From positions 7,394 to 71,393 of the forward strand of contig DASTLR010000008.1 of NCBI GenBank assembly GCA_035714745.1: 64,000 nucleotides of DNA, in the 5' to 3' direction. Numbering within the stretch: position 1 is the stretch's first letter; the number at the start of each line of letters is the position of its first letter. The DNA comes from Minisyncoccota bacterium (GTDB lineage Bacteria; Patescibacteriota; Minisyncoccia; Phycocordibacterales; UBA6065). Shown here piece by piece: positions 11,303 to 63,055 of this stretch. The translations under genes were made by a program, and so were the position numbers. The notes below the pieces were generated by a model. It was not told where the DNA came from, did no database searches, and worked only from the letters and a program-made list of their open reading frames with translations.

Positions 11303-12166
11303 ATGCGCGCTCTCCTGGGTTTCTTTGGGACAAAGATCGGCATCGCCGTCCTGGCGGCCATCGTCATCGTCGGCGCGGCAGCCGGATTCAAGTACAGCCG
11401 CTCGGCTCAGGAGAAGCAGAAAGGCGCCGCCACCCTCGTCGTCGAGCAGATCATCAAGGATTCCCTCAAGAACCTGAACGAGATAGAAGGGGACAGCGCC
11501 TTCGTCGCCTCGACCACCGGCCCAGACGACGCCGCTCCCCAGGAGCCGGCAGTGCCCTATACGGCTACCGACCGCTTCTCCCAGCAGATCTTCCGCGAAT
11601 ACATCTCGGCCAAGCAAAACGGCAAAGAGGTCGACGCCGACACCTCTGCCCGCATCGCCGAGAGCGTTCTTGCTCAAGATTATAGCGATAGAACGCCAGC
11701 CTACTCGGTTCTCGACCTCCATATCAGCGCCGACGAATCCGCCTCCTCTCTTAGAACGTACGGAAATAGCCTGGGAGCCATACTTTCAGCCCCGCCGGCG
11801 GCCAAAGAAAATGAATTAGAGATATTCCTCAAGCTCTCGTCAAAGTCGACAGACGACTATGGAAAAGAGCTGGCGGCCATACAAAAGCGCTATATTTCGA
11901 TGCGGACGGCGCTTTTGGCCCTGCCGGCGCCCAAAAGCTTTGCCGCGGCGCAGGTCGACATCCTTAATTCCCTCAACCTCTTCGTCGACGCCATAGACGG
12001 AGCGCTGAATATAGACGCTGACCCAATCGGGGCATTGAACAAGATAGCGCGGCATGACGACGGCATGACGGCCCTCCAAAAGGCCCTCGCTTCGATCAAA
12101 AAGACCTTCGCCGCAAAAGGCATGACCTTCGCGGCCAAAGAAAAAGGATTTATCCTCACAGAATAA
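11303..12166 (+). CDS. Hypothetical membrane-anchored protein
   Basis: An N-terminal TM helix (IGIAVLAAIVIVGAAAGF) followed by a soluble domain. It lies directly upstream of the T4SS-like locus. Confidence 0.4.
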   Translation: MRALLGFFGTKIGIAVLAAIVIVGAAAGFKYSRSAQEKQKGAATLVVEQIIKDSLKNLNEIEGDSAFVASTTGPDDAAPQEPAVPYTATDRFSQQIFREYISAKQNGKEVDADTSARIAESVLAQDYSDRTPAYSVLDLHISADESASSLRTYGNSLGAILSAPPAAKENELEIFLKLSSKSTDDYGKELAAIQKRYISMRTALLALPAPKSFAAAQVDILNSLNLFVDAIDGALNIDADPIGALNKIARHDDGMTALQKALASIKKTFAAKGMTFAAKEKGFILTE

Positions 12167-12195: not shown

Positions 12196-14388
12196 ATGAA
12201 AGGCGGACTGCACCAAAAGATCGTTCTCTCGCTTCTCGTGCCCTTGCTCGCCGCCTCGAGCATGGTCTTTGGCACGGAAACCGCCTCTGCCGCCGTCGCG
12301 GGCTGTACCGCCAACGTCATCAGCGCCGCCGTAGGTAAAGGGGCGCTCGGAAAAGTGCTCGGCTCCGTCGTGCCGGTAGGCGACACCGTCACCAACATCG
12401 GCGTGACAGGCAGCTTCACCAAAGACTGCATCCTCACGCCGATCGCCATAAAGATGGCCCGCACCATGGCCAGGAACATCTCGAACAGCATCGTCAATTG
12501 GATCAATAGCGACTTCAAGGGCAAGCCTGCCTTCGTCACCGATTTCGGCAGCCTGGCAAAGGATAGCGCCGACGAGGTCATCGGCAACTTCATCTACGGC
12601 AGCGACTTGAACTTCCTCTGCCAGCCGTTCTCCTTCAAGATCCGCCTGGCCCTGGCCACGAAGTATCAGCAGCCCTTCCAGGAACAGATCCGCTGCCGCG
12701 TGACGGACGTGACCAAGAACGTCTCGAGCTTCGTCAAGGCAAACGGGGGAGCGGGCTGGAACAACTGGCTCGAGATCACCACTCAGCCGCAGAACAACGT
12801 ATACGGCGCATACCTGATGGCCGATTCCCAGCTTGCCCAGAACGTCCAGAGCGCCCTGAACGTCAAGAACGACCAGCTCAAGATGGGCAATGGATTCTTG
12901 GACTTCCAGGTCTGCGAGAAATGGATAGAGCCCGGAAAGTCGAGCGGCATCGTCGCAGACAGCGCAGCGTCGGCCGCGGCCCAGTCCAGCACCTATTCCT
13001 CGAGCCCCTTCAACTCGACGCTCCAGCCGACGAATACGAGTCTGACCGGCGGATCGCTGGGCGCGTCTGGAAATTCTCCACTCCAGGGCGCTAGCGTCGG
13101 CTTCGGCGTTCCTGTGACGGCCAACACCCTGCCTACCTTCAAAGACAGCGCCGGAAAGACCTTTGGAGTCGAGAAAACCTGCAGCAAATGGGTCACAAAG
13201 ACTCCTGGCGCCTATGTCGCCGAGCTCGGCAAGCCTGTGTTGGGCGGCTGGGCGGATCAGCTGAATCTCGCCACCGATATCGATCAGATCGTCGGAGCGC
13301 TCATCAACCACTTCGGGGAGAAGGTCGTGAGCGGCGCCCAAGGCTTCCTCGGGCTGTCGTCAAAGGGCGGCTACGCGCAGAGCAACCTGAACTATGCGCA
13401 GGCTTCCACATTCGCAGACGACGCCTCGAATCCCGAGAATGCCGGCCTGGGCGATGCCGGCGCCGCCGCTTCGGACAGCTTCTCGGCGCTCTTTTCGGCC
13501 ACCCAGGTCAGCCTGGGCGACAGCCTGGCGGCAGGCAAGGCGGTCTCGATGTCGAGCCCCGGCATCGGCAGCTCGGCATGGGTCGTCGACGGGGACACCG
13601 GCACGGCCGCCGCCACTGCCGAGACAGTCAATCCATGGATTGAGGTGGACCTGGGCGAGCCTGCAGAGATCAGGGAGATCCATATCTGGAGCCCTACCGA
13701 CCAGACACCGGCAGAAAGCGTCGGAACCTTTGACGTCGTCGTCTCGAAGTCGCAGGGCGGCCGCGACTGGGTCAGTCCGCAGGCTACGCAGACGGAGACC
13801 AGTCCGAACCCCGCCGTCGTCTCGGTAGGCCAGACCGGCAGATATATCAGGATAGAGCGCTCAAGGAACTCATACGAATGCGGCGACCCAGAGCAGGGCT
13901 CGCAGACCTGCTACTATCCGCTCCGAGTGGGGGAGATCGAGGTCGTCGGCCCTGCCGCCGGTACGGAACAAGACGGCGCAGCCCAGAGCGCGAGCGTCTC
14001 GTTCGGCACGCCGAGCGGGGCCACCTCTATCCGTCCTTCCTCGGCCTTCTCCTTTACCATCCCTGTCAACGCGACCTCCGAGACGAACATCGCCTTCGTA
14101 GAGGTCAGGCTCTACGCCGGAACCGAGCTCGCGCCGTTCGCCTCGGCCTTTTCCAACGGCTCGGTCGGCCTGAAACAGAGCGGCGCCACCCGCAACGTCT
14201 ATCCCGCAGGCGCTCCCGGCGTAGATTTCACGGGCGTTTCGGCCGGTCCGACCTCTGGAACCGCCATCACTGTCGCCGGTACCGCCCTGCCGCCGGGCGC
14301 CACGAGCGCGTACAAGATCGTGCTCACCGCCCGCGACGCAAATAGGGAAATCCTCGATACGGCTACTGTCAATTTCATAGTACAATAG
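12196..14388 (+). CDS. Large secreted protein with an F5/8 type C (discoidin) domain, a putative surface adhesin of the T4SS-like locus
   Basis: Signal peptide MKGG..LLAASSMVFG. The segment SAWVVDGDTGTAAATAETVNPWIEVDLGEPAEIREIHIW..RYIRIERS reads as a discoidin/F5-8C signature. Confidence 0.55.
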   Translation: MKGGLHQKIVLSLLVPLLAASSMVFGTETASAAVAGCTANVISAAVGKGALGKVLGSVVPVGDTVTNIGVTGSFTKDCILTPIAIKMARTMARNISNSIVNWINSDFKGKPAFVTDFGSLAKDSADEVIGNFIYGSDLNFLCQPFSFKIRLALATKYQQPFQEQIRCRVTDVTKNVSSFVKANGGAGWNNWLEITTQPQNNVYGAYLMADSQLAQNVQSALNVKNDQLKMGNGFLDFQVCEKWIEPGKSSGIVADSAASAAAQSSTYSSSPFNSTLQPTNTSLTGGSLGASGNSPLQGASVGFGVPVTANTLPTFKDSAGKTFGVEKTCSKWVTKTPGAYVAELGKPVLGGWADQLNLATDIDQIVGALINHFGEKVVSGAQGFLGLSSKGGYAQSNLNYAQASTFADDASNPENAGLGDAGAAASDSFSALFSATQVSLGDSLAAGKAVSMSSPGIGSSAWVVDGDTGTAAATAETVNPWIEVDLGEPAEIREIHIWSPTDQTPAESVGTFDVVVSKSQGGRDWVSPQATQTETSPNPAVVSVGQTGRYIRIERSRNSYECGDPEQGSQTCYYPLRVGEIEVVGPAAGTEQDGAAQSASVSFGTPSGATSIRPSSAFSFTIPVNATSETNIAFVEVRLYAGTELAPFASAFSNGSVGLKQSGATRNVYPAGAPGVDFTGVSAGPTSGTAITVAGTALPPGATSAYKIVLTARDANREILDTATVNFIVQ

Positions 14389-14393
14389 ACAGG

Positions 14394-16787
14394 ATGAGAA
14401 AGTTCCTGCCCCAATTCCTCCTTGCAACGACCGCGCTCGTCGGAGTAGGCTTCTTTTTCGCGCCGCATGAGGCGCACGCGTTCGAAGCGATAGACACCCT
14501 CGTGAAATTCCTGACCTTCAGCTCGGACATCGTCTATGGCACCCTGGGCAAGCTCTTCTGGTTCGGCACCGTGCCGATCACCAGCTTCGTGCTCTGGCTG
14601 GTCGGCATGATGATCGACCTGGCCACCAACCTCTCTCTGACTAACAATTTCTTTAACGCTCCCGCCATCGCCACGGCATGGAGCATCATCCGCGACCTCT
14701 GCAACATGGTCTTCATCTTCGTCCTGATCTGGGCGGGACTGAGGACCATCCTGAACCTCGGCAACGCGGTGACGGTCAAGAAGACCATCACCGGCGTGGT
14801 CATCGCCGCCCTTTTCATCAACTTCAGCCTCTTCATCACCAAAGCCATTATCGACGTCAGCAATATCGGCACGGCCTGGTTCGTCAAAGGCGTCGAGAAC
14901 GTCGGGGGAGGGACGAGCGTCAGCGATTCCGTGCGAAGCGTCCTCCAGATGAACAAGCTCGTCGAGAACAAGGACGCCGGCAAAGGCGCCTGGAGCCTGC
15001 AGTCGTTCGTCGCAGGCTTCGCCCTGACCATCTTGAACTGCGTCGCCATCTACGTGCTCTTCAAAGTCGCCTTCTTCCTGGTAGCCAGGATCGTATCGTT
15101 CTTCTTCTTGCTCGTCACCGCGCCGCTCGGCTTCGTCGGCGGGCTCGAGATACCGCAGCTCTCGGCCTATTCGAAGAAATGGTGGGACGAGCTCCGCAAC
15201 CAGGCCCTGATGGCCCCGATGTTCTTCCTCATGCTCTATATCACGCTCTACATCGTCGATCAGGTTGACGCTCTCGTCTTTGCCAACGGCGCGGCGAGCT
15301 CGGTCGATCCCGTCACTGGCTCCGGCTTCACCCCCGCGAACTACGTGATGTTCGCCATCATCGTCCTCATGCTCAATAAATGCCTCTCCACCGCCGAGGA
15401 ATACAGCGGCGAGCTCGGCGGCCAGATCGCGGGGTATCTCAAGAGCGCTACCTCATTCGTTGGCGGCGCGGCTCTCATGGGAACGGTGGGCCGGGCAGCT
15501 ACTTGGGCCAAGAATAACAAAAGCTTCCAAAGCCTCGCGGGCAGGAGCGCGATCGCCGGCGCTCTTTATGGCGGGACAACGAAAGTCGCCGAGTCTGGCT
15601 TCGGCGTAAAATCTAATTATAACCAGCTCGCAAAATCCACCGGCCTCAGCTCCATCGATCTGACTAAAAACGCGTTCAAAGGCGCAGACAGCTATGAGAA
15701 ACAGAGGAAATTCGAAATCGATGAGAAGAAGAAATTCGCCAAAACGCTTGGAAAGGGGCCTGAAGGGGAGGCTAACAGGATCGCATACGCCAATCGGCTG
15801 GACAAAGGCGTCTACGCTCAGACTGTCGGCAGGCTGACCGGAGACAAGGCCAACCTCAAGGAAGCCGCAAAGGATATGGCGAAAGACGCGAAGACGGCCA
15901 TGACCAAGGGAGTCAAAGACGACGCCAAGAAGAAAGCGACCGCGAAGCAGAATCAGGTTGTCGTAGCAGAAACCGTCCAGGGTATGCTCAAGAAGCCTAT
16001 GAACAGCGCCGACGTGGGCGAAGTCGACAAGGCAGCTAAATCCGGGAAGAAGCTCCTGGCAGAATTGAGGAAAGACCTCAAAGAAGAGAACAAGGACGAC
16101 TACCTGAAATTCGTAAGCGGATACGAGGAATCAAAAGGAAGAATAGATCCGGAGAGCAAGGCAGACAAAATCGGGATTGACATTGCCCGTCTCCAGACCG
16201 AGAAAATGGAAGCGGAATGGGCGTTGAATAGGAATCCTAAAGACAGAGACGCCGAGAAGAAATTCTCTGAGGTTAATGCAAAGATAGCTGAAAAGACCAA
16301 GGAGAAGGAAGAAGCAGCCGCTCAGGAGTCTAAACAGAGAGAGCGCTTCGCCGAGCTAGCTAAAAAGATAACCGCTGAGGATAGGAAAGAAGCTGCCAAG
16401 AAATTCTCTGGAATCTCCGCCAAAGAATGGACCAAGATAGCCGAGCAACAAGTCGCATACGAAGACGAGATCATCAAGAATATCGATGCCGCTGAAAAGG
16501 CCCTTGATAATGCGCTAGAGAAGGCGGAATACATAGGGACTAAGAAAGAGAACCTCATGGAGGCGCAAAAAGCCCTTGAGACCGTCATCGGAAAGACTCC
16601 GAAGTTCAAGGGCGGCAAAAAAGGTCAGCCGCGAGAAATCGACAAAGATAATCCAGGATCAGGCCTCAAGAAGCAGGCAGCCGATCTTAAAGAGAAGTTC
16701 AATGATAAGAACAAGGAGCTCACTATAGGCAAAGACGAACCAGAGAAAAAAGAGGAGAAACCTCCGGAAGCAGCTCCTTCTAAATAA
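14394..16787 (+). CDS. VirB6/TrbL-like polytopic membrane protein with a Lys/Glu-rich coiled-coil tail of about 400 aa
   Basis: At least six hydrophobic helices in the first 400 aa in a VirB6-like arrangement, followed by a low-complexity K/E/A-rich region. Confidence 0.55.
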   Translation: MRKFLPQFLLATTALVGVGFFFAPHEAHAFEAIDTLVKFLTFSSDIVYGTLGKLFWFGTVPITSFVLWLVGMMIDLATNLSLTNNFFNAPAIATAWSIIRDLCNMVFIFVLIWAGLRTILNLGNAVTVKKTITGVVIAALFINFSLFITKAIIDVSNIGTAWFVKGVENVGGGTSVSDSVRSVLQMNKLVENKDAGKGAWSLQSFVAGFALTILNCVAIYVLFKVAFFLVARIVSFFFLLVTAPLGFVGGLEIPQLSAYSKKWWDELRNQALMAPMFFLMLYITLYIVDQVDALVFANGAASSVDPVTGSGFTPANYVMFAIIVLMLNKCLSTAEEYSGELGGQIAGYLKSATSFVGGAALMGTVGRAATWAKNNKSFQSLAGRSAIAGALYGGTTKVAESGFGVKSNYNQLAKSTGLSSIDLTKNAFKGADSYEKQRKFEIDEKKKFAKTLGKGPEGEANRIAYANRLDKGVYAQTVGRLTGDKANLKEAAKDMAKDAKTAMTKGVKDDAKKKATAKQNQVVVAETVQGMLKKPMNSADVGEVDKAAKSGKKLLAELRKDLKEENKDDYLKFVSGYEESKGRIDPESKADKIGIDIARLQTEKMEAEWALNRNPKDRDAEKKFSEVNAKIAEKTKEKEEAAAQESKQRERFAELAKKITAEDRKEAAKKFSGISAKEWTKIAEQQVAYEDEIIKNIDAAEKALDNALEKAEYIGTKKENLMEAQKALETVIGKTPKFKGGKKGQPREIDKDNPGSGLKKQAADLKEKFNDKNKELTIGKDEPEKKEEKPPEAAPSK

Positions 16788-16793
16788 CCAGCC

Positions 16794-17309
16794 ATGGACA
16801 CACAACAAATAGCTGAAAAGATACTTTCGGTGGGAAAAGCCCATAGCCTGAACCTCGAACAGATCGGCATGCTCGAGAGCATCGTCAGAGACGTCGTTGA
16901 GGGCAGGACTTCAGCTGGGGACTTCGTCAGTAGCATAGAAGACGCACTGAACCTCGAAGACGACGAACTGACTTCGCTTGCCGCTGACATCAACCTTGAA
17001 GTGCTCATGCCTATCAGGGAGAGCCTGATCGAAGATCAGGCGAGCGATACAGAGGAAGACCTGACAGAAAAAGAAACCGACGACACCCGCGAATCCATCC
17101 TCGCCGAGATCGAGAATCCGAGCCCGACCGTCCATCCGATATCTGCCGCCGACCAGACGGTGGCGGGGCCTGCCGCGGCCAGGGAAGTGATCGCCGAGCG
17201 CCTGAGCCAGCCGGTCAGCTCGCCCGCCCAAACGATCGTCGTACCGCCGAAAGCGCCGGAAAAGCCCCGCGGCTACGCCGTAGATCCGTATCGCGAGCCG
17301 ATCAATTAG
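16794..17309 (+). CDS. Hypothetical acidic protein inside the T4SS-like locus
   Basis: Asp/Glu-rich ORF with no TM segment, tightly linked to its neighbours. Confidence 0.4.
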   Translation: MDTQQIAEKILSVGKAHSLNLEQIGMLESIVRDVVEGRTSAGDFVSSIEDALNLEDDELTSLAADINLEVLMPIRESLIEDQASDTEEDLTEKETDDTRESILAEIENPSPTVHPISAADQTVAGPAAAREVIAERLSQPVSSPAQTIVVPPKAPEKPRGYAVDPYREPIN

Positions 17310-17344: not shown

Positions 17345-17791
17345 ATGCGTTTCCAGGTCCCTCAATTCATCGAGGTCGAGGACAAGATCTTCGGCCCTCT
17401 GACCATCAAGCAGTTCATCTACCTCCTGGGCGGGGCCGGCCTCTCCTTTATCGTCTATAGCTTCGTCGGCAACCTCTTTCTGAGCGCCGTCTTCATCGTG
17501 CCGATCATGGCCTTTGCCCTGGCTCTGGCCTTCTACAAAGTGAACGGCAAGCCCTTCATCAACGTCGTCGAGGCGGCCTTTACTTACTTCGTCAACAGCA
17601 AGCTCTATATCTGGAAGAAGGTCGACAAGGTCCCGGTAGCCAAGAACGCCCCGACCGCGGCAGGCGCCGCCTCGCCCGATTTCTATGTGCCAAAGCTGTC
17701 GGATTCCAAGCTCAAGGACCTGACCTGGTCGCTCGACATCAAGCAGAGCCAGAACCCCGCCCAGAACCAGAAAGGGAAGAGCAATTTCTAG
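17345..17791 (+). CDS. PrgI/VirB3-like small membrane protein
   Basis: Two TM helices (LGGAGLSFIVYSFVGNLFLSAVFIVPIMAFALALAF) sit directly upstream of the VirB4 gene, as in Gram-positive conjugation loci. Confidence 0.5.
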   Translation: MRFQVPQFIEVEDKIFGPLTIKQFIYLLGGAGLSFIVYSFVGNLFLSAVFIVPIMAFALALAFYKVNGKPFINVVEAAFTYFVNSKLYIWKKVDKVPVAKNAPTAAGAASPDFYVPKLSDSKLKDLTWSLDIKQSQNPAQNQKGKSNF

Positions 17792-17807: not shown

Positions 17808-18443
17808 ATGGCAGTGAACGCAAAAACGACCCAGGAATTCGTGCCGATCAAGGAGATCCGCCAGGGTGTGGTCATCCTCAAGGACGATTCCCTGCGGGGC
17901 ATCGTCATAGCCTCGTCCCTGAACTTCGCCCTGAAGTCCGCCGAGGAGCAGCAGTCGATCATCCTGCAGTTCCAGAACTTCCTGAACTCGCTCGATTTCT
18001 CCGTGCAGATCTTCATCCAGTCCCGAAAGCTCGACATCAGGCCCTATATCGCTCTATTAGAGAACAGACTCAAGGAGCAGGTGGGCGACCTCTTGAAAAT
18101 GCAGACGCGCGAGTACATCTCATTCATCAAGAACTTCACCGAGAGCCAGAACATCATGAGCAAGACCTTCTTCGTCGTGGTGCCCTATACTCCGGCACCG
18201 GTGAGCGCCAGCGGCATCGCCGACGTCCTGGGGAAAAAGAAGACGGCGACCGAGACGGCCGAGCAGCGCCTGGCCGAATTCGAGGAGCACAGGAGCCAGC
18301 TGGAGCAGAGGATGGGCGTGGTGACCCAGGGCCTGGTGCGCTGCGGCATCCGCACCATCGAGCTGGGCACCGAGGAGGTCGTCGAGCTCTTCTACAAGAT
18401 CTTTAACCCGGGCGATACGGAAAAGCCTATTCCACTTTCATAA
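17808..18443 (+). pseudogene. virB4: VirB4-family ATPase, N-terminal fragment of about 211 aa, separated from the rest of the gene by a stop plus a +1 frame change
   Basis: TQEFVPIKEIRQGVVILKDDSLRGIV matches the N-terminal motif of Gram-positive VirB4/TraE/Orf16 proteins. The ORF ends at TAA 4 nt before the next ORF, which is in another frame. Confidence 0.55.
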
Positions 18444-18447
18444 TCCT

Positions 18448-20250
18448 ATGGGAATATTCGATTTTCTAAAGAAGAAGAGCAAGGTAGAGATAGCTCCGAT
18501 CCTACCTCAAGAAATATACGAAGCGGGCGTCTTGGAATTAAAAGACGTCATCGCCCCGTCGGCCCTCAAGGTATCGCCGCGCGAGCTCTCCCTGGGTGAC
18601 AAGATCGTCAGGTCCTTCTTCGTCATCTCGTACCCGCGCTTCCTCTCGGAGAGCTGGTTCGCCCCGATCATCAACTTGGACAAGGTCTTCAACATCTCTA
18701 TCTTCATCCACCCGGTCGAGACGGCCAAGGTCCTCCGCCAATTCCAAAAGAAAGTAGCCGAGGTCCAGAGCCAGATCTCCATCAGGGAACAGAAAGGATT
18801 AGTGCGCGATCCGATGCTCGATACGGCATACCAGGACCTGGAATCGCTCCGCGACAACCTCATGCAGGCTCAGGAGAAGCTCTTCGACGTGGGCGTCTAT
18901 ATCTCGATCTACGGCGACAGCGCCAGCGAGCTGGACAAGACCGAGTCCGAGATCAAGTCGATCCTGGAGTCCAAGCTGGTCTACGTCAAGCCGGCCCTCT
19001 TCCAACAGGAGCAGGGCTACAAGAGCAACCTGCCGACAGCCACCGACCAGCTTTTGGTCCATTCCAAGCTGAATTCCAGCCCTCTTTCCAGTCTTTTCCC
19101 GTTCATCTCCTTCGACCTGACCTCGGACAAGGGCATCCTCTACGGCATCAACAGGCATAACTCGTCCCTGGTGCTCTTCGACCGCTTCTCGCTCGAGAAC
19201 TACAACTCCATCACCTTTGCCAAGTCCGGCGCCGGAAAGTCATACGCCACCAAGCTGGAGATCCTGCGAACGCTGATGTTCGACACCGACGTCATCGTCA
19301 TCGACCCCGAGAAAGAATACGAATACCTGGCCGAATCGACGGGAGGCAAATACTTCAACATCTCGCTCAATTCCGAGCATCGCATCAATCCCTTCGACCT
19401 GCCGCTGCCGCGCGAGGACGAGTCGCCAGCCGACGTCCTGCGCTCGAACATCATCAACCTGGTCGGCCTGTTCCGCATCATGATGGGCGGCCTGACGCCC
19501 GAGGAGGACGCCATCATCGACCGCGCCATCACCGAGACCTACGCCCTCAAGGACATCACCCCGGACACTGACTTCTCGCACACCGAGGCGCCGCTGCTCT
19601 CGGACTTCGAGCTGGTGCTCGCCGGCATGGAGGGAGGGGAGTCCCTGGTCCAGCGCCTGACGAAATACACCAAGGGCACCTGGTCCGGCTTCATCAACAG
19701 GCCGACGAACGTCGACATCGGCGCCAAATTCGTGGTCTTCTCGCTCCGCGACATGGAGGACGAGCTCAAGCCGGTGGCCATGTATATCGTCACCCACTAC
19801 ATCTCGAACGCCGTGAGGAAGAACGTCAAGAAGCGCCTGCTCGTCATCGACGAGGCGTGGTGGATGATGAAATCCGAAGACACGGCCTCGTTCCTCCTGG
19901 GCTTGGCCAAGCGCGGACGCAAGTATTTCCTAGGCCTGGCCACCATCACCCAGGACGTCGACGACTTCCTTAAATCGCCGTACGGCCTACCGATCATCAC
20001 CAACTCCTCGATCCAGGTCCTCCTCAAGCAATCGCCGTCGTCGATCGACCGTCTCCAGCAGGTCTTCAATCTCACCGACGAGGAGAAATACCTCCTCCTC
20101 GAGTCCGACGTGGGAGAGGGCATATTCTTCGTCGGCTTGAAACACGTGGCCATAAAGGTCATCGCCTCGTATACCGAGGACCAGATCATCACCTCGGACC
20201 CCGCCCAGATATTGGCTATAAAGGAAGCGAAGAAGAATCTGGCGCAGTAG
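18448..20250 (+). CDS. virB4: VirB4-family ATPase, C-terminal 600 aa piece with a Walker A box
   Basis: IAPSALKVSPRELSLGDKIVRSFFVISYPRF is the VirB4 mid-N-terminal motif. Later come the Walker A box AKSGAGKSY, a Walker B box LLVIDEAWWMM and the C-terminal TraC/VirB4 motifs. Confidence 0.8.
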   Translation: MGIFDFLKKKSKVEIAPILPQEIYEAGVLELKDVIAPSALKVSPRELSLGDKIVRSFFVISYPRFLSESWFAPIINLDKVFNISIFIHPVETAKVLRQFQKKVAEVQSQISIREQKGLVRDPMLDTAYQDLESLRDNLMQAQEKLFDVGVYISIYGDSASELDKTESEIKSILESKLVYVKPALFQQEQGYKSNLPTATDQLLVHSKLNSSPLSSLFPFISFDLTSDKGILYGINRHNSSLVLFDRFSLENYNSITFAKSGAGKSYATKLEILRTLMFDTDVIVIDPEKEYEYLAESTGGKYFNISLNSEHRINPFDLPLPREDESPADVLRSNIINLVGLFRIMMGGLTPEEDAIIDRAITETYALKDITPDTDFSHTEAPLLSDFELVLAGMEGGESLVQRLTKYTKGTWSGFINRPTNVDIGAKFVVFSLRDMEDELKPVAMYIVTHYISNAVRKNVKKRLLVIDEAWWMMKSEDTASFLLGLAKRGRKYFLGLATITQDVDDFLKSPYGLPIITNSSIQVLLKQSPSSIDRLQQVFNLTDEEKYLLLESDVGEGIFFVGLKHVAIKVIASYTEDQIITSDPAQILAIKEAKKNLAQ

Positions 20251-20266: not shown

Positions 20267-21289
20267 ATGCGCATGTCGCGCTTAGCAAAAAGCACTTTCT
20301 TTATCCTATCTTCTCTGGTGTTCTTGGTGTTCTCTGTGCTCTCTGTCTCTTCCGTATCGGCCCAGGGCATCCCCGGCATCTCCGCTCCTCTCATCCTCAC
20401 CATGGAGCCAGCCAATCCCAAGCCGCTCCAGACCGTCAACCTCTCGCTAAAAAGCTTCAGCCTCGACATCGACAAGGCGTCCATATCATGGACCGTCAAC
20501 GGTAAAGTAGCCGCCCGCGGCATAGGCATGAAGGTCTTTAGCGTCCAGGCTGGGTCTTTGGGCTCCTCAAAGACCGTTGAAGCGGTGGTCGCCACCGACT
20601 CCGAGGGCGATTTGAGCCAGACGGCAGTCATCCGTCCGGCCGACCTGACCTTGATATGGCAGGCCGCGTCATACGTTCCGGCTTTTTACAAGGGAAAGGC
20701 CCTGCTTTCCTACGGCGGCGCCTACAAAGTCGTGGCATTGCCCGAGATCCTCGACGCGAACGGGCGAAAGATAGATCCGCGCACGCTCATTTACGCCTGG
20801 AAAAAGAACGAGGCGGCCCAGCAGGAGGCTTCAGGCTATGGAAAATCCTACTTCGTCAGCAGCCAGAGCAGCTTCGTCCGCCAGGGCGACGAGATCGCGG
20901 TCGAAGTGACCTCCCCGGCCGATGGCTTCACCGTCTCGGCGCAGACCACCGTCGTGCCGGTCGCCCCCGAGCTTCATTTCTATGAGGATAGCCCCCTGTA
21001 TGGCGTCGTCTTCGAGAAAGAGGCTGCGGGCAGGATGAAGCTGGCAAACGAGGAGGTCACGCTGGCCGCCGAGCCGTTCTTCTTTTCTGCTGTCGACAAG
21101 GGGAGCGCGCTCCTGGGCTACACGTGGACGCTCGGCGGGGCTGCGGTCCCGGAATTCCAGGATAAGCCCTCGATAACCCTGCGCCGCGCCACGGCGGCGG
21201 CCGGCTCGGCCTCTATCGGCCTGTCGGTAGGGAACAGCGCCAGGCTCCTGCAGGGCGCCGAACAGAGCCTTTTAATACAATATGAATAG
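20267..21289 (+). CDS. Hypothetical secreted protein of the T4SS-like locus
   Basis: Signal peptide LSSLVFLVFSVLSVSSVSAQG. The start is translationally coupled to the virB4 stop. No motif recognised. Confidence 0.45.
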   Translation: MRMSRLAKSTFFILSSLVFLVFSVLSVSSVSAQGIPGISAPLILTMEPANPKPLQTVNLSLKSFSLDIDKASISWTVNGKVAARGIGMKVFSVQAGSLGSSKTVEAVVATDSEGDLSQTAVIRPADLTLIWQAASYVPAFYKGKALLSYGGAYKVVALPEILDANGRKIDPRTLIYAWKKNEAAQQEASGYGKSYFVSSQSSFVRQGDEIAVEVTSPADGFTVSAQTTVVPVAPELHFYEDSPLYGVVFEKEAAGRMKLANEEVTLAAEPFFFSAVDKGSALLGYTWTLGGAAVPEFQDKPSITLRRATAAAGSASIGLSVGNSARLLQGAEQSLLIQYE

Positions 21290-22520
21290 GATGAAAAAAA
21301 CCTTTGCCGCCGTCGCATTCTCGCTCTACCTGGCGTTGGGCTTCGCGGCTGCCGCATCAGCTCAGGTAGATACCAACTACATACCTCTGACGACCGTTCC
21401 CGGCGCCTTTGAAGCCGGCAAGATCACGAACCCGGTAAAGGTAGTGGCGGGCGTCTACGGCATCGCCATCGGCATCGGATCGATCATCGCCGTCGTCATG
21501 ATCATCCTGGCCGGCTTCAAATATATGTACCAGGAGTCGATCGACGGCAAGTCAGACGCCAAAGAGCAGATCACCAACGCCTTCATAGGCCTCTTCGTCA
21601 TCCTCGGCTCGTATATCATCCTCAAGACCATCAATCCCGCGCTCGTCGACTTCGACGTCGAGCTCCGGGGCGGAAGCGGAAAGGTGTCCGGGCTCATCGC
21701 CATACAAAAGGAGCTCGATGCGACTCAATCAAAAGTAGCTCAAGCTAACGCCGCCACAGCCGAGCGGCAAAAAGAAATCGACGCTCTCAAGACTACGACT
21801 CTACCTAACAAGGAAAAAGAGATCCAAGCGATGAAAGACAGGATCGCAGCCGCAGAAAAGACAGCAGGCGGGCCGGGAAAAAAAGCCGTGCTCGACGAAC
21901 TTAATGGCCAACTCGCCAAGCTGGAGGGTGAGAAAGCCCAGATACTCGACACTATCAGCATAAAGACGATTGATAACCTAAAGACCATCGCCCAAAATAA
22001 TGTCACCCTTGGAAGAGACAATGTCTTCAAGAACGAGATCACCTCGCTCACCAAGATAACAGACCCGACCCAGGCTTCGGTTGAGGCAAGGGAATCCCTT
22101 CGAAGACTGGCGGTCCAGACAGACAGCCTTAAACTCGCGATGGAAAAGAAGATAGCCGAGGCCGAAACAATTGACGTAGCGATCGGCTCAAAAAGCGAGG
22201 TGGCTAAGCAAGAGTACTTCAATGCTGCCAACCAGGATTTGACATATATCAATCAATCAAAAAGCCTCATCACCGAAGCTCATGACACAATAAACGCCAA
22301 CTCTGGCGGTACAGACAAGCAAAATTCTGAATACAATGCGCTGCTCAGCAAATATGCGGGCTATGTTAAAGAACTTCAAGATTCCAATAGAAAGGACTTG
22401 GCAGACCGACTCCAAACCGATATTGATAGCGTGACCAAGATAATGAAAATCCGCCAAGCGGTGAATTGCGCGACATATGATGCGGCTCGTCGACAGCAGC
22501 TTACTCTCTGCCAACCATAG
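21282..22520 (+). CDS. VirB2/TrbC-like pilin-fold protein (signal peptide plus two TM helices) with a C-terminal coiled-coil extension of about 280 aa
   Basis: Signal peptide followed by two hydrophobic helices (VVAGVYGIAIGIGSIIAVVMIILAGF and AFIGLFVILGSYIILKTI), which is the TrbC/VirB2 topology. The rest is heptad-rich. Confidence 0.45.
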   Translation: MNRMKKTFAAVAFSLYLALGFAAAASAQVDTNYIPLTTVPGAFEAGKITNPVKVVAGVYGIAIGIGSIIAVVMIILAGFKYMYQESIDGKSDAKEQITNAFIGLFVILGSYIILKTINPALVDFDVELRGGSGKVSGLIAIQKELDATQSKVAQANAATAERQKEIDALKTTTLPNKEKEIQAMKDRIAAAEKTAGGPGKKAVLDELNGQLAKLEGEKAQILDTISIKTIDNLKTIAQNNVTLGRDNVFKNEITSLTKITDPTQASVEARESLRRLAVQTDSLKLAMEKKIAEAETIDVAIGSKSEVAKQEYFNAANQDLTYINQSKSLITEAHDTINANSGGTDKQNSEYNALLSKYAGYVKELQDSNRKDLADRLQTDIDSVTKIMKIRQAVNCATYDAARRQQLTLCQP

Positions 22521-22522
22521 CC

Positions 22523-23749
22523 ATGTCAAAGAAACTGTTCTTCTTCATCATACTGGCGGTCATCGCGGTCCTGGGCGTGGCGGGATGGTGGTTCCTGCGC
22601 CTACAGGTGGCGGCGCCGGCGGTACAGCAGCCTGACCAGACGGGGGAGGACCTCTTTCCTTTTGGCTCGGGAGCGGTAAAGCCGAGCGAGGCCAAGCCTG
22701 CAACCACCACCCAGCCTGTCTCGAACGTCACGGCTCCGACTTCGCCCGCGGCCCAGCCAAGGCTCCGCAAGCTCTCGTCCGAGCCTGCCGTCTCCGCGGC
22801 TTTCGTCTATTCAGCGACGTCGACGCGCGCCGTCCGCTTCGTCGACCGCGCCACGGGCCATATCCTGGAAGCGGCGGTAGATTCGGCCCTTCAGTCCACA
22901 CCGTCGAACGTCACCATCCCCCAGGTCAGGGAAGCGCTGTGGGGAGACAAGGCTTCGTCATTGGTCTATCGCTATCTGAAAGGCTCGACCGTCCAATCGT
23001 TCTACGCCGCTCTTAAATCCGGCACGGCGACGAGCTCCCAGCCGATCGAGGGCATATTCCTGCCGAGCGACATCCGATCGATGGCGGTGACCGGCGGCAA
23101 GATCCTCTATTTCGATCCTTCCGTCGAAAGCGGCCGCCTGATCATGGCGAATATGGACGGATCAAAGAAAGCCACGGTCTGGACCTCTGATTTCGGCGAG
23201 TGGGCAATCTCCTCGGTAAATCCCGCAAAGGCTTTCATATATACCAAACCGAGCGCCTCAGCTAACGGCGTCGGCTACATCGTCGACACTACAAAGGGCA
23301 CGGCTACGAAGGTCGTCGGCGACGCTGCCGGCCTCGAGGGTTCGATCGGCCCGTCCGGCGACTACGTCTTCCTCTCGGCCGCTTCGGGCTCGGGAATCGC
23401 TTCAGCGTCGTATTCGGCCGCCAAAAAGACGGTCAGCCAGCTCTCCCTGAGCACGCTAGCCTCCAAATGCGCCTGGAGCGGCGCATCGAAAAAGACGGTC
23501 TACTGCGGAATCCCTGCGAACCTTGAAAGCGCCGCATACCCTGACGACTGGTACAAGGGCTCCGTCAGCTTCTCTGACAGGCTCTGGAAGATCGACATGG
23601 AAACGGGAGAGACCGAGGTCGTCTTGGACCCCTTCCTCGACAGCCTGAACGAATTCGACATGACGAACCTGACGGTCGATCCGACGGATACCTATCTGGC
23701 CTTTGTGAACAAGAAAGACCTCTCGCTCTGGCTGTACAAGATCAAATAA
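22523..23749 (+). CDS. Hypothetical membrane-anchored extracytoplasmic protein, last gene of the T4SS-like locus
   Basis: N-terminal TM helix FFFIILAVIAVLGVAGWWF, a Pro/Thr-rich linker, then a beta-rich domain. Confidence 0.45.
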   Translation: MSKKLFFFIILAVIAVLGVAGWWFLRLQVAAPAVQQPDQTGEDLFPFGSGAVKPSEAKPATTTQPVSNVTAPTSPAAQPRLRKLSSEPAVSAAFVYSATSTRAVRFVDRATGHILEAAVDSALQSTPSNVTIPQVREALWGDKASSLVYRYLKGSTVQSFYAALKSGTATSSQPIEGIFLPSDIRSMAVTGGKILYFDPSVESGRLIMANMDGSKKATVWTSDFGEWAISSVNPAKAFIYTKPSASANGVGYIVDTTKGTATKVVGDAAGLEGSIGPSGDYVFLSAASGSGIASASYSAAKKTVSQLSLSTLASKCAWSGASKKTVYCGIPANLESAAYPDDWYKGSVSFSDRLWKIDMETGETEVVLDPFLDSLNEFDMTNLTVDPTDTYLAFVNKKDLSLWLYKIK

Positions 23750-42243: not shown

Positions 42244-42316
42244 CCGCCCATAGCTCAGTCGGTAGAGCAGCTCCCTTTTAAGGAGAGGGTCCCAGGTTCG
42301 ATTCCTGGTGGGCGGA
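42244..42316 (+). tRNA. tRNA-Lys (anticodon UUU)
   Basis: Cloverleaf folded by hand: acceptor CCGCCCA/TGGGCGG, D arm GCTC-AGTCGGTA-GAGC, anticodon loop CUUUUAA, T loop TTCGATT. No encoded CCA. Confidence 0.8.
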
Positions 42317-42329
42317 CTAAGTGTTCCCT

Positions 42330-53824: not shown

Positions 53825-53897
53825 TGGTGCCTATAGTTTAGTGGTAAAACTCCGGATTGTGGTCCCGGCATTGTGGGTTCGATTCCCACTAGGCACC
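53825..53897 (+). tRNA. tRNA-His (anticodon GUG) with a G(-1) extra base; boundary of the AT-rich island
   Basis: G-1 plus acceptor GTGCCTA/TAGGCAC, anticodon loop UUGUGGU, T loop TTCGATT and discriminator C. Confidence 0.75.
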
Positions 53898-55490
53898 CCT
53901 TAAGTCTGTTATTCCGATAGTCTCTCGGAAAGCAGGACTCTTTTCTGCAAAAGCCTTTTCCATTGGGAAAGGTTTTTGCTTGTTATTGAGGCAAAGCGTA
54001 CCAGTGGCAATCAACGCCTCCATAATTGGGCTAGGGACAGCTTTAGCGATCTTGCGGTCAGATACCTCAAATCTCTCCCAAAATATGCTCAAGTACGTCC
54101 TTTTAAGCTCTGGAGAAGCCTGTTGGTAAGCCTCGCCTAGGTTTCGAGCAAGAAGTATTACCTTCTGAATTACATCAACTTTGATGTTCTTATTGGCATC
54201 GAGCTTGGCGAGTTCGCTTCCACAAGAAACTATTATCTCCCTTTGTCTTTCTTTGATTCGAGTGAAGTCGTTATCATCAAGTACGCCAGAGATAAGCTTT
54301 TCCTCAGCGAGCTGGAGTTTTGATTCGGCGGCAGACTTAGTCGCCAGAATCTTTCGCTTCTCACGTTCCGTATCCTGCTTTTTCAGTGAATAGATGAACT
54401 TGACCCTCTCAAGCAGACGCTCAATGAACTTCTCAGAGAACTGAATTCCTCGAAAGTGTTCGACTACCTGATCTTCGAGGTCTTTTACGTTAACTCCTCG
54501 ATCGTTATCTGGAATAACGAATGGTTTCTGTTTATTCGTTGCATAAGGACGATAGTAGCTTTTATCCTTTTTCTTCTCATGGTTCTCGCCTATGAATCTC
54601 AAACCGCTTATAGCTGAGAACACATAGCCACGAAGAAGGAAATCATATTTTCGCCTCCGGCAGACACCATGACCATTATTCAATCGAACTTGTCGGCATC
54701 TTTCAAAGACTTCCTGAGATGTGAGAGGCGTGTGTTTACCCATTTTTCTCATTTCACCCCAGACCATTTCTCCATGGTAAAAAGGGTTTGCAATAATCTT
54801 AAACATATTCGCCAGACCGAGCTTTCCTCCCGTGTGTGATGTAAGTCCTTTCTTGAAAATCCATTCTCGCAATTCGAGCATTGGATGGTTACCCGTAGCG
54901 TACTTTCGGAAAAGTTCTGTAACAACCGGACCTTTTATTGGATCAACGACGATAATGCGTTTATCGGGATTATTTTCTTCGCCGACATTGAGATAACCAA
55001 GCGTAGCTCGCGTAGGCCACCAGCCGTCATTAAACCGCTGTTGCATGCTCTTCTTGGTCTTACGAGACGTTATCTGTGATTGAAGCTGATTAACGCCTGC
55101 AATGATCGTATCCATGAAGTTTCCCTCTGGAGTATCTTCAATTCCTGGCTGGGAGATAGAAACGAGCGTCGCAGAGTATTTCTTCAGAAGTGCCTTTATG
55201 GTGGTGTGATCGTTCACGTTGCGGGCAAGCCTGTCGGTATCGAGTACGAAGACCGCCCTGATATCTTTCTCTTGCACACGAACGAGCATATCCTGAAGAG
55301 CGGGACGATTCATTGTTGTAGCTGACTTACCAGCATCTACGAAGACCCCATTGTCCGTCAGTTCGTATTTACCGCTTTCTGTAATTGTTTTCTTACAGAG
55401 ATCCTCCTGTGTAGCAAGCGAATAACGCCCGCCCTTTGCCTGCTCCTCTGTGGAGACACGGCAATATATAACTGCTTTATCTTTGGTCAT
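53889..55490 (-). CDS. Large serine recombinase (resolvase/invertase N-terminal domain, recombinase domain and zinc ribbon)
   Basis: AVIYCRVSTEEQ with the catalytic Ser, resolvase domain motifs and a long C-terminal recombinase region. Its 3' end overlaps the tRNA-His 3' end by about 9 nt. Confidence 0.85.
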   Translation of the reverse strand: MTKDKAVIYCRVSTEEQAKGGRYSLATQEDLCKKTITESGKYELTDNGVFVDAGKSATTMNRPALQDMLVRVQEKDIRAVFVLDTDRLARNVNDHTTIKALLKKYSATLVSISQPGIEDTPEGNFMDTIIAGVNQLQSQITSRKTKKSMQQRFNDGWWPTRATLGYLNVGEENNPDKRIIVVDPIKGPVVTELFRKYATGNHPMLELREWIFKKGLTSHTGGKLGLANMFKIIANPFYHGEMVWGEMRKMGKHTPLTSQEVFERCRQVRLNNGHGVCRRRKYDFLLRGYVFSAISGLRFIGENHEKKKDKSYYRPYATNKQKPFVIPDNDRGVNVKDLEDQVVEHFRGIQFSEKFIERLLERVKFIYSLKKQDTEREKRKILATKSAAESKLQLAEEKLISGVLDDNDFTRIKERQREIIVSCGSELAKLDANKNIKVDVIQKVILLARNLGEAYQQASPELKRTYLSIFWERFEVSDRKIAKAVPSPIMEALIATGTLCLNNKQKPFPMEKAFAEKSPAFRETIGITDLRGA

Positions 55491-55987
55491 TGTTTATAGA
55501 TGAACTCCATTGGGACGAATCCCTTCCGTGAAGTGAATTGCCCGTCGAGTATTCTGATCTCTCGTACTCCCAATGAAGAATTGCTAAGTACCAACACTTT
55601 CGTTCCCGCCTTAACAAAATAGGCTTCATTGTTGCCGATAAGCTCGATCAGTCCATCTGAATCGTTAGCGATTGCAGACTTTGAGTATTTATCAAATGCT
55701 TCCTTGGTTGAAGGAACCATGACTTCGTCTTTTCCTTCGATTCTGAGATAACCCTCTTCACCCACGCTTACTCGAGTAGAAGTTTGAGGAGTGGAGGTTA
55801 CTGCACGCTCACTTACATTGTTAGATGCCTTAGCGAGAGATATGGTTATAAATAAAAAGAAGATCAGTGCGACGACAGCAAGAGGATGCCTACGTGCCCA
55901 TGATCTTAAATCTGCCTTACAATTCGGACATCGTTTCGCTTTCTTAGGGATATCCGTCTGACACTCCTTACATTTTTTTGTTTCCAC
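55487..55987 (-). CDS. Hypothetical zinc-ribbon membrane protein, translationally coupled to the recombinase
   Basis: N-terminal CKECQ..CPNC zinc ribbon, a TM helix and an extracytoplasmic domain. The stop overlaps the recombinase start (ATGA). Confidence 0.4.
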   Translation of the reverse strand: METKKCKECQTDIPKKAKRCPNCKADLRSWARRHPLAVVALIFFLFITISLAKASNNVSERAVTSTPQTSTRVSVGEEGYLRIEGKDEVMVPSTKEAFDKYSKSAIANDSDGLIELIGNNEAYFVKAGTKVLVLSNSSLGVREIRILDGQFTSRKGFVPMEFIYKQ

Positions 55988-56256
55988 GTGATTAGAAATA
56001 AACGATTAATCCCGTGGAAAGCTCCCACACAAAAAACCTGCCACAGGTAGGAACCGAAGTCCCTCGTGAAGGTTTCCCCGCACGGCCAGTTAGACAACCC
56101 TATGACAGGCTCTTTATGTCTAACTGGACTTATAGCCATGCTCTGGAGAAAACTCCAGAGGTTAGGCTCATGAACGCTATTTAGTTGTAAGGTAATTATG
56201 CTCTTTTTCATCCTTTTTGCCAAAATGACTTTGAAACGCTGACGCCTATACGTTTT

Positions 56257-56472
56257 TTAGTTGTCGGCTATAGGCGGTTTAGTCGCTTCTGACTGAGAGT
56301 CGCCAGTTTCCTTTTTGACGTTATCCACCAAGACCGCCCGTCTTTCTCTCATGTATCTCTCAAAAATGCTGTAAACCAGTTGATTAATGGACACCTTTTC
56401 ACAAAGAGCATCAATTTTGAGAAATGAATGCTGTTCGCGGGTAACTTTTATGTGTTTGGTGAACTTGAACAT
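56257..56472 (-). CDS. Hypothetical small protein (71 aa)
   Basis: ORF in the island followed by a hairpin. No motif recognised. Confidence 0.3.
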   Translation of the reverse strand: MFKFTKHIKVTREQHSFLKIDALCEKVSINQLVYSIFERYMRERRAVLVDNVKKETGDSQSEATKPPIADN

Positions 56473-56842
56473 GTAATTAAGTTGTTAACGCTATAGGGTA
56501 GGCGGAGCCCATATCCCTCGTCGGTAAATAATTGAAAGGTGTTACTCAGATTTCTCTCTGCACCTTTTGTAGAAAGACTTAAAGTGAATGGCGGTCTTCA
56601 CCCGAAGCTTCTCGGTTTCCCCGATGGCTTTCTTTAACGCCACACCTTCTACTTCATTCATGTGGCGGGAATCGCGAACCCTATAGGTATAGGCATCGCC
56701 CTGTATCGCGGCACTTTTTTAACGACGCACACCGCTCTACCCCTCACGTCGGAACTGAAAAGAGCCCTAATTTAGAAGGGCAGACCAGTACCCCCTAAAT
56801 CAGGGCTCGTTTCAGAGCTTAATTACTGGTCTGTCCCAAATA

Positions 56843-56981
56843 TTACTTATTGCCTTTCAATTCAGCCTCAATGAGCTCGATTGCCTCCTGGAGAAGAAGA
56901 TCAGCAACTCGGCGAGCCAAAGTAACCTCTGGGTCTTTTACCCAAGTAGGCTCTTCTATTCGCTTATCCTGCTTCTTTGCC
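56843..56981 (-). CDS. Hypothetical small protein (46 aa) followed by a strong hairpin terminator
   Basis: My hand translation gives MAKKQDKRIEEPTWVKDPEVTLARRVADLLLQEAIELIEAELKGNK. It is followed by nested inverted repeats at 56761-56837. Below the ORF-track size cutoff. Confidence 0.3.
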
Positions 56982-57059
56982 ATAATTTATTATTTGCAGG
57001 GCGATTATAAAAAAGCAGAGCAAGTTCATTGCTCCGCTTAAAGGGGGTGGTTAAGAGGG

Positions 57060-57752
57060 TTATAGTTTTCTACTCTTTATTTTGGCCATTATTTTTCTTG
57101 CCTGCGAGAGAGACACTCTCAAATGTCCGGCCATTTTTTCATCACCGCAATCAGGATTTGCCTTCAAAAACTCCTTGGCTTCCCATTCGAGGTTTTTTGT
57201 TTTTTCTTCTTTCGGTTTAACTTTTTTTGAGAGTGGATGCTTCGATGAAATTGAGTTCTTAAGACTCCTGTCGATTTCTGACCAATTGTCCTCAATGTAT
57301 TTAATGAGCTCAGGTTTGCTAGCCCCAGGTTCGACGTAGATTTCTGCGTAAGCGAAATTCTCGATGTCATCACCAGCATTTTTTATTTTATGAGAAACTC
57401 CCAAGGATGTATTCGAAATCCCTCCGAACAGGGTTTTTTCTACTATTGCCGCTACGACCAAGCCGTTATCAAAATTAAATTTTTTTGATACCGAATCATA
57501 CAACTCTGATTGTGCTTCCAGGAAAATCCTCTGAGTTTCTGGTTGGCGTATGGTATGACCTGCCAGTTTCATACCTCGCGTCAGTTTTATTTGTTCGATG
57601 TCGGAGAGCCATTTCCGAAACTCTTGAACAGTTTTAACCTCGTTTCTAAAAGGCAAAAAAGCTACCTTAAGTGCGTCTATGTCCTCATCCAGGTCGATTT
57701 TGAGCATCAATTTATCTACCCACTCTTCTAGTCTGTTGGCTGGTCTCTCCAT
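57060..57752 (-). CDS. Hypothetical protein with a possible C-terminal helix-turn-helix
   Basis: 230 aa. The C-terminal segment EKMAGHLRVSLSQARKIMAKIK resembles an HTH. Confidence 0.4.
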   Translation of the reverse strand: MERPANRLEEWVDKLMLKIDLDEDIDALKVAFLPFRNEVKTVQEFRKWLSDIEQIKLTRGMKLAGHTIRQPETQRIFLEAQSELYDSVSKKFNFDNGLVVAAIVEKTLFGGISNTSLGVSHKIKNAGDDIENFAYAEIYVEPGASKPELIKYIEDNWSEIDRSLKNSISSKHPLSKKVKPKEEKTKNLEWEAKEFLKANPDCGDEKMAGHLRVSLSQARKIMAKIKSRKL

Positions 57753-57805
57753 AGCTTAATCTTATGTCATTTTGGACGTGCATAAAATGACAAAAGGAAT
57801 AGTAT

Positions 57806-59658: not shown

Positions 59659-59663
59659 ATTCA

Positions 59664-60437: not shown

Positions 60438-60487
60438 AACTAATGCACATTTGTTGACTATACCCCTAGGGGGTATATACTTTCGAC

Positions 60488-60757: not shown

Positions 60758-60760
60758 TCT

Positions 60761-63052: not shown

Positions 63053-63055
63053 TCA

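Follow-up and report, generated by a model that had tools for sequence, protein, structure and literature searches.

A pilin-family protein with a hypervariable helical extension in the origin-proximal type IV secretion locus of a Patescibacterium

The pilins of the type IV secretion systems (T4SS) of Patescibacteria have been surveyed as VirB2-like proteins of the Pfam family PF18895 (Quinonero-Coronel et al., 2025; PMC12102498), and in Southlakia epibionticum, the one species tested, T4SS pilins are essential and epibiotic growth requires the system (Wang et al., 2023; PMC10633639). Both studies treat the pilins as small proteins, often encoded in arrays of 2–11 divergent copies. The role of the T4SS of Saccharibacteria, the only one tested so far, is described as “completely unknown” (PMC11665869), and pilus building by monoderm T4SS and the identity of the host-touching component are regarded as open questions (PMC12857230). 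Here we analyze a gene at positions 21282..22520 of a 64-kb stretch of DNA (the window) from a Minisyncoccota genome (contig DASTLR010000008.1), whose product joins a PF18895-type core to a hypervariable, predicted helical extension of about 280 residues.

Like the surveyed Patescibacteria pilins, the protein has the PF18895 family core and is encoded near dnaA, dnaN, rnpA and ksgA together with TrsD, VirB4 and PrgI, in the slot occupied elsewhere by a 124-aa member of the family; the locus matches the chromosomal, origin-proximal, MPF-FATA-like T4SS reported for these bacteria (PMC12102498). In contrast to those pilins it is the product of a single gene with a 280-aa ectodomain, and its variation lies between genomes and not among paralogs in an array. 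With VirB2, TrbC and TraA (PF04956 and relatives) it shares a leader, two hydrophobic helices, a short charged loop and adjacent VirB3-like and VirB4 genes, but it has no significant sequence similarity to them, belongs to a monoderm-type system with no outer-membrane core, and has a mature length of ~385 aa against ~70 aa. The Mbov_0395 family (NCBIfam NF045849), pilin-like conjugal transfer proteins from integrative and conjugative elements of Mollicutes, likewise belongs to a system of monoderm MPF-FATA type and shows a weak similarity in the hairpin (20.7 bits, aa 52–115), but this score lies under the cutoff of 40, and Mbov_0395 proteins are ~80 aa long with no extension. A further candidate analogue, pLS20_p028 (NCBIfam NF045890), was ruled out: the score was 16.6 bits against a cutoff of 150, the BLASTP E-value was 0.68, and pLS20_p028 is a 974-aa polytopic protein.

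The open reading frame (ORF) proposed in a first-pass annotation of the window proved exact, with an ATG start and a product of 412 aa, on the + strand, the strand of all features of the gene and its cluster given below. The NCBI copy of the protein (from a Candidatus Paceibacterota metagenome-assembled genome, on a 306-kb contig) is identical, with its start annotated 3 aa later and the label “hypothetical protein”. The signal peptide and two closely spaced transmembrane (TM) helices that the annotation had described are borne out by hydropathy segments at aa 7–27, ~54–79 and ~97–117. A Sec-type signal peptide (aa 1–27; 21282..21362) consists of MNRMKK, a hydrophobic region covering the Kyte–Doolittle segment aa 7–27, and ASA directly before Q; its AxA motif is kept family-wide despite only 29% identity in this region. 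It is followed by a conserved mature N-terminal segment (aa 28–55; 21363..21446; Y-I-P-L-T-T-V-P-G ... T-N-P-V), predicted to be extracytoplasmic, in which Y33, P35, L36, P40, G41, T49, N50, P51 and V52 are near-invariant and whose motif is also present in short pilins. TM helix 1 (~aa 54–79; 21441..21518) has a Kyte–Doolittle peak of 2.73 at aa 61–79 and is modeled by AlphaFold2 (AF2) as a helix from 51 to 88. A short charged loop of 17 aa (aa 80–96, KYMYQESIDGKSDAKEQ; 21519..21569), predicted to be cytoplasmic from the signal peptide and the two TM helices, contains the family-invariant residues Y81, M82, Y83, E85, S86, G89, K90, S91 and A93. TM helix 2 (~aa 97–117; 21570..21632; Kyte–Doolittle segment aa 96–122; AF2 helix 93–117) leads into a conserved junction (aa 118–135, INPALVDFDVELRGGSGK; 21633..21686), with invariant N118, L121, V122, F124, L128 and G131, which marks both the end point of stand-alone pilins and the boundary of the variable region.

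Beyond TM helix 2 the protein continues for ~280 residues, as the annotation had stated, and the string that it quoted, ELDATQSKVAQANAATAERQKEIDALK, lies at aa 143–169. This region is 28% charged, with 4 prolines and both cysteines of the protein. The two cysteines, C396 and C410 (22467..22511), probably form a disulfide; C410 is invariant and a partner cysteine is kept in all extension types. The hydropathy profile, the AxA motif and the C-terminal cysteine pair together predict the VirB2/TrbC-type topology of a cleaved leader, two TM helices, a short cytoplasmic loop and both termini outside. The signal peptide and two TM helices thus place the C-terminus outside the cell, in agreement with the conserved cysteine pairs, and the pair in this protein is consistent with an extracytoplasmic location of the extension. 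The ORF is neither a chance reading frame nor an assembly fusion, since about 20 independent homologs (365–454 aa) have a like architecture and the same gene order recurs on four other contigs.

Homology tests indicate that the N-terminal 135 residues are a T4SS pilin-family core. PF18895 (T4SS_pilin) matches aa 56–114 over profile positions 10–68 of 71 (E = 1.2e-5), the identical database protein (P0001) and most orthologs have a precomputed PF18895.6 match, and the protein scores ~200 bits against a family-core hidden Markov model (HMM). The core is 40–51% identical over its whole length to stand-alone PF18895 pilins of 124–134 aa (P0017–P0020), and the alignment has 33 invariant columns, including GFKYM and AKEQITNA...ILKTINP. 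These short pilins end 10–20 residues past KTINPxLV, which is where the extension of the longer protein starts. A core-only word-index search returned just 4 matches, a number that reflects the limits of the index. The earlier reading of the protein as a T4SS pilin thus stands for the PF18895 core and the VirB2/TrbC topology, but not for membership of VirB2 itself: PF04956 (VirB2/TrbC) gave no match at E ≤ 0.01, and an hhalign comparison of the core profile with Agrobacterium tumefaciens VirB2 was collinear with VirB2 residues 54–117 but not significant (E = 0.07, probability 0.8%). Only some relatives come near the PF04956 cutoff of 27.9 bits, with 26.3 bits for the protein at L012 and 15.6 bits for P0017. 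We use the label “VirB2-like” on the basis of topology, PF18895 family and genomic context. Sequence searches of the PDB gave no match, whether the query was the full protein or the core profile.

The genomic context identifies the gene as the positional ortholog of the canonical pilin of this locus. It belongs to a cluster of co-directional genes and lies two genes downstream of the VirB4-family ATPase, which ends ~1 kb upstream (18448..20250; the C-terminal part of a split VirB4, with NCBIfam conju_CD1110 at 364.6 bits against a cutoff of 325 and Pfam P-loop_TraG at 93 bits). Ahead of it are a TrsD/VirB4 N-terminal-domain protein (17808..18443; NCBIfam TrsD and VirB4_plasma N-terminal matches), whose orthologs carry PF26593 (TraC-like), and a PrgI/VirB3-like protein (17345..17791; a PF12666 PrgI match of 46.1 bits, where the cutoff is 27). 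Downstream, past one further gene, follow yidC on the opposite strand and then dnaA and dnaN, where the GC skew changes sign. Synteny with the VirB4, TrsD and PrgI cluster is conserved on four other contigs (L001, L003, L005 and L006), among them the contigs that carry P0009, P0005 and P0013. L001, L003 and L006 have the long form of the pilin in this slot. L005 has a 124-aa stand-alone pilin there, after a ~350-aa gene with an overlapping start and before a ~420-aa gene, yidC and rnpA. Searches with the core HMMs found no second PF18895-type ORF in the window, L001 or L003.

The extension (aa 136–412; 21687..22517) is predicted to be extracytoplasmic and all-helical. Our AF2 model, built on a 14-sequence family alignment, resolves it with a predicted local distance difference test (pLDDT) score of 85–95 into six helices (133–194, 199–257, 262–295, 304–338, 343–367 and 371–396) separated by five breaks; the TM hairpin is modeled with moderate confidence only. 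The first two helices form a long antiparallel hairpin of ~9 nm (21678..22052; pLDDT 84–94), and four shorter helices follow. The long coiled-coil stalk envisaged in the first-pass annotation is therefore not seen in the model as one continuous structure. Its description of the region as heptad-rich fared better in part: register scanning against composition-matched shuffles found local enrichment (mean contrast z = 3.0; 35 strong windows against 8.8 expected, p ~0.003), with stable registers only at aa 136–185 and 192–231, but a periodicity of 3.5 residues is absent at the global level, the observed power being reached by 75% of shuffles. A type-B protein (types are defined below) is modeled as all-helical too, likewise with two long and four shorter helices, at lower confidence. 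The extension has no Pfam, PDB or BFVD match.

The distribution of the extension is narrow. A search of 1.84 billion representative proteins with an extension-only profile gave end-to-end matches solely in proteins of 385–454 aa, matching from residue ~130–147, and in fragments; every end-to-end match that was inspected shared the signal peptide and hairpin as well as the junction and the cysteine pair at the C-terminus. The other matches came from long generic coiled-coil proteins, which aligned in multiple stretches to the first ~100 positions of the profile. The all-helical extension is thus found solely in the pilin-core architecture, in roughly 20 protein clusters, and 1 of 185,579 GTDB species representatives (L007) carries it.

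The most informative property of the protein, absent from the earlier annotation, is that this extension is hypervariable and structured into types. Mean pairwise identity across the family is 29% in the signal peptide, 61% in the mature N-terminal segment, 79% from TM helix 1 through TM helix 2, 55% in the junction and 18% in the extension. The window and L003 are closely related in the rest of the locus, with 97.5% identity in VirB4, 92% in DnaN, 91% in DnaA, 89% in TrsD, 88% in PrgI, 76–85% in the pilin core, and 66% and 65% in the 340-aa and 408-aa proteins encoded on either side of the pilin gene. Their extensions have no BLASTP match to each other. At the DNA level, identity is 76–79% over the core. 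It falls sharply at ~21697 (aa ~139), stays at background as far as the stop codon, and rises again in the gene that follows. All-against-all BLASTP comparisons, together with leave-out HMMs, split the extensions into at least five blocks without cross-similarity, with different types in the window and in L003. Type A comprises the window protein, P0002-4, P0022 and P0027, and is linked to type F (P0026, P0029) and marginally to type E (P0006, P0011); type B comprises P0005 and P0007, type C P0008 and P0009, and type D P0010, P0012, P0013, P0014 and P0021. All types keep the junction INPxLVxF…L·GG·G[R/K] in front of the variable region and the cysteine pair at its C-terminal end. Type C extensions (P0008, P0009, L007) have an extra cysteine pair (C…x7…C) in their first third, placed by alignment only close to where the two long helices turn, which suggests an oxidizing, extracellular location.

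Extension type is uncoupled from the similarity and phylogeny of the core. Mean core identity is 73.6% for same-type pairs and 73.2% for different-type pairs; the core nearest to that of the window (P0005, 82.7%) has a type B extension, whereas the farthest (P0027, 54.7%) has type A, recognized at E = 6e-15. In our reading the ectodomain has been replaced as a module, a conclusion drawn from the blocks of BLASTP and HMM significance and from the discordance between core and type. Percent identity by itself was dropped as proof of cassette exchange, local-alignment identities being saturated at 20–30% for all pairs. Capture of the extension from a neighboring gene, such as the extra 215-aa gene of L005, was also considered and rejected: the extension HMM matches nothing in L005 or in other ORFs of the window.

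We favor, with a little better than an even chance of being right, the interpretation that this protein is a pilin-family subunit of a chromosomal T4SS that displays an exchangeable helical ectodomain as a surface for host contact or recognition. It would be a VirB2-like PF18895 subunit of an origin-proximal, monoderm-type (MPF-FATA-like) T4SS of an uncultured Paceibacteria (CPR) bacterium, and in one narrow clade it would have gained an all-helical ectodomain of ~280 aa. After insertion by the Sec pathway and predicted cleavage of the 27-aa signal peptide, the mature protein would form a two-helix hairpin with its N-terminus outside, its loop in the cytoplasm, and its C-terminus and cysteine-closed extension outside. 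The conserved hairpin and N-terminal motif would then engage the VirB4/TrsD–PrgI–VirB6-like machine as the 124-aa pilin, its positional ortholog, presumably does, whether by polymerizing or by docking. The ~9-nm hairpin and helical bundle would project as the outermost layer and could serve as the surface of host contact and specificity, or as a target of host or phage recognition, with sequence types apparently exchanged independently of the core at the INPxLVxF...GGxG[RK] junction. A role in contact or recognition would explain the several mutually unrecognizable extension types. The conserved hairpin and N-terminus, at about the level of PrgI/VirB3, together with the canonical pilin slot, make it most likely that these parts perform the pilin’s job at the VirB4/PrgI/VirB6-like machine. 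The hairpin is far too conserved for a passive anchor, at 79% identity against 29% for the signal peptide and 31–42% for the VirB6-like protein. The core evolves at about the rate of VirB3/PrgI and the ectodomain is the fastest-evolving segment of the region; in an obligate episymbiont, a host-contact or recognition surface would be expected to combine just these traits, an outermost position, the fastest evolution and discrete, exchangeable types. The gene, the sole one of pilin type found in the locus and window, is thus a specific candidate for a host-facing surface. Flagellin offers an analogy, in that it also joins a conserved assembly core (D0/D1) to a displayed domain that is hypervariable and not the same in close relatives; the two are not homologous, the variable domain of flagellin is central whereas that of this protein is C-terminal, and a filament of this protein is unproven.

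Several observations weigh against this interpretation. The loop carries charges of +3/−4, which leaves the positive-inside rule indecisive for the proposed orientation, and the PF18895 score of 25.7 bits falls 0.9 bit below the gathering threshold of 26.6; the non-significant alignment to A. tumefaciens VirB2 belongs here too. Divergence of an extreme degree, with no recombination, would be an alternative account of the difference between the extensions of the window and L003. The resemblance between the AF2 models of types A and B cannot count as independent, since both rest on one shared alignment. The analysis covered 64 kb of the genome, so that a gene for a short major pilin may lie elsewhere. 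In no Patescibacterium has a T4SS pilus been observed, and reviews go no further than speculation about one (PMC12857230). Lastly, fusions of PF18895 to SLT domains, described below, suggest that the hairpin may be a mere anchor or docking module.

The rival that survives best, although we consider it rather unlikely, is a non-polymerizing, membrane-anchored T4SS accessory whose PF18895 hairpin serves only to dock at the VirB6/VirB3/VirB4 platform. The helical hairpin of the extension would then be a structural strut across the S-layer or cell wall, with a function like that of the coiled-coil hairpins of periplasmic adaptor proteins or of those parts of VirB8 or VirB10 that span the envelope. 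A structural strut is not expected, however, to be the fastest-evolving segment of its locus, with unrelated types at 97.5% VirB4 identity, and the 124-aa positional ortholog has no strut. P-type pilin precursors such as RP4 TrbC and VirB2 undergo C-terminal processing, a precedent for a pro-protein that is cleaved after export at the junction (…LVxF…L·GG·G[R/K]) to give a short pilin and a released helical effector or adhesin. The junction motif is (near-)invariant across extension types and absent from stand-alone pilins, and its residues 122–132 have pLDDT < 50, indicating a flexible, exposed linker; but a flexible glycine-rich linker needs no further explanation, cleavage is without direct evidence, and Pfam and NCBIfam identify no protease candidate in the cluster, so that we regard this as improbable. 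We give least credence to a minor or tip pilin like VirB5, a few copies of which would nucleate or cap a filament of a short major pilin encoded outside the 64 kb examined, with the bundle as tip adhesin: VirB5-type tip proteins are elongated helical bundles (PMC12857230) and no VirB5 homolog is recognizable in the locus by Pfam or NCBIfam, but a comparison of the helical domain with solved VirB5-family structures revealed no structural similarity.

The architecture, which the first-pass annotation had called unusual, is so in comparison with proteobacterial VirB2, but not within Patescibacteria. Two core motifs retrieved 87 PF18895-type cores at 74 loci of species-representative genomes, and in this motif-selected sample the tail after the core was at most 30 aa in 23 cases, 31–100 aa in 7, 101–200 aa in 29 and longer than 200 aa in 28; 57 of the 87 cores thus have a tail of more than 100 aa. 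A Pfam scan of ten long ORFs found eight passing the PF18895 threshold and one with a clear SLT lytic-transglycosylase domain, and P0015 is a fusion of the core to SLT_3. Other long tails are mostly cysteine-rich and globular, some with peptidase-like motifs (VanY/M15-like, HExxH) recognized by eye. These proteins share with ours an N-terminal pilin hairpin and a large extracytoplasmic C-terminal domain, but their tails are cysteine-rich globular or enzymatic, whereas the tail described here is cysteine-poor, all-helical and present in ~20 clusters. A core-profile search among called genes has the opposite bias, its best 120 matches all being 101–153 aa long; with both samples biased, a ratio of long to short forms cannot be given. 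Domain-bearing PF18895 proteins are nevertheless clearly common in Patescibacteria. The literature searched contained no mention of extended or fused PF18895 proteins, and their prevalence appears to be undescribed; published “pilin array” counts may, by implication, include many non-canonical, domain-bearing proteins. The prevalence of large C-terminal domains on close relatives of the core may outweigh the single family in importance. Across the GTDB Patescibacteria loci L008-L080 of the motif-selected sample, most cores carry C-terminal domains of 100–480 aa (examples are L022:2150-4249, L009:2462-3733 and L012:2495-3382), and ~23 cores are also preceded by more than 150 aa.

A bolder version of the favored interpretation, which we hold to be unlikely, is that every subunit of a VirB2-type filament or stalk, built by the T4SS of a monoderm episymbiont, bears a ~9-nm helical ectodomain swapped by recombination at the conserved junction among at least five unrelated “serotypes”, and that the PF18895 hairpin is a general display module. 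If true, the pilus coat, and through it host range or the evasion of recognition by host and phage, could be reprogrammed with no alteration of the assembly core, and Patescibacteria would use the hairpin to attach cell-wall hydrolases and adhesins to the T4SS where it faces the host. Four elements of this work are genuinely new: the positional orthology with the short pilin, the restricted ectodomain family, the types uncoupled from the core, and the wide prevalence of domain-bearing PF18895 proteins.

The immediate neighbors of the pilin gene are conserved with it. The preceding gene (20267..21289) encodes a 340-aa secreted protein with an N-terminal signal-like segment, and its stop codon overlaps the start of the pilin gene by 8 nt, an arrangement of translational coupling; the same overlap and position are found in L001, L003, L005 and L006. 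The following gene of the same operon (22523..23749), a conserved partner, encodes a protein of 408 aa that has a TM segment at its N-terminus. Neither of the two proteins has a Pfam match. Their synteny holds in all related loci, and their rate of evolution is intermediate; they are candidates for extracellular partners of the pilin ectodomain.

At the other end, the T4SS cluster opens with a gene for a secreted 730-aa protein with an F5/8 type C (galactose-binding-like) domain recognized by Pfam (12196..14388), which is conserved in L001 and possibly acts as a T4SS-associated carbohydrate-binding adhesin. Next is a polytopic membrane protein (14394..16787) that we assign as VirB6-like from multiple hydrophobic segments in its translation and from its position, conserved in L001, L003, L005 and L006. 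Its K/E-rich C-terminal tail of ~350 aa is probably helical. Pfam gave no match to the tail or to the rest of the protein, which is only 31–42% identical between genomes whose VirB4 is >91% identical. A small acidic protein (16794..17309) separates it from the PrgI/VirB3-like gene. At the head of the cluster, an ORF of 287 aa (11303..12166) was examined as a paralogous pilin and rejected, since its 11–13-bit match to the N-terminal TM segment is at noise level. The TM segment of this ORF (…IVIVGAAAGFKYSRS) is weakly similar to the pilin TM helix 1 and the start of the loop, and the remainder appears helical; the ORF may be a degenerate or remote relative, or the likeness a coincidence. A scan of the cluster for promoters and terminators gave no information, the counts being equal or close to those expected from shuffles.

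Two further observations concern the rest of the window. ARAGORN reports a “tRNA-Stop (anticodon tta)” at 42244..42317, and Rfam confirms a real tRNA at this position (68.8 bits). It is not a suppressor tRNA: that call is a register artefact, as the Rfam loop C-U-UUU-A-A is that of a tRNA-Lys(UUU), with a G·A mismatch atop the anticodon stem. The segment ~53890..64000 has a GC content of 38–47%, against 54–65% elsewhere in the window. It starts with a gene for a large serine recombinase (53889..55490, − strand) that abuts a tRNA-His gene (53827..53899), and it also carries a heavy-metal P-type ATPase gene (60761..63052) and a weak HEPN-like ORF; this segment is probably an integrated mobile element.

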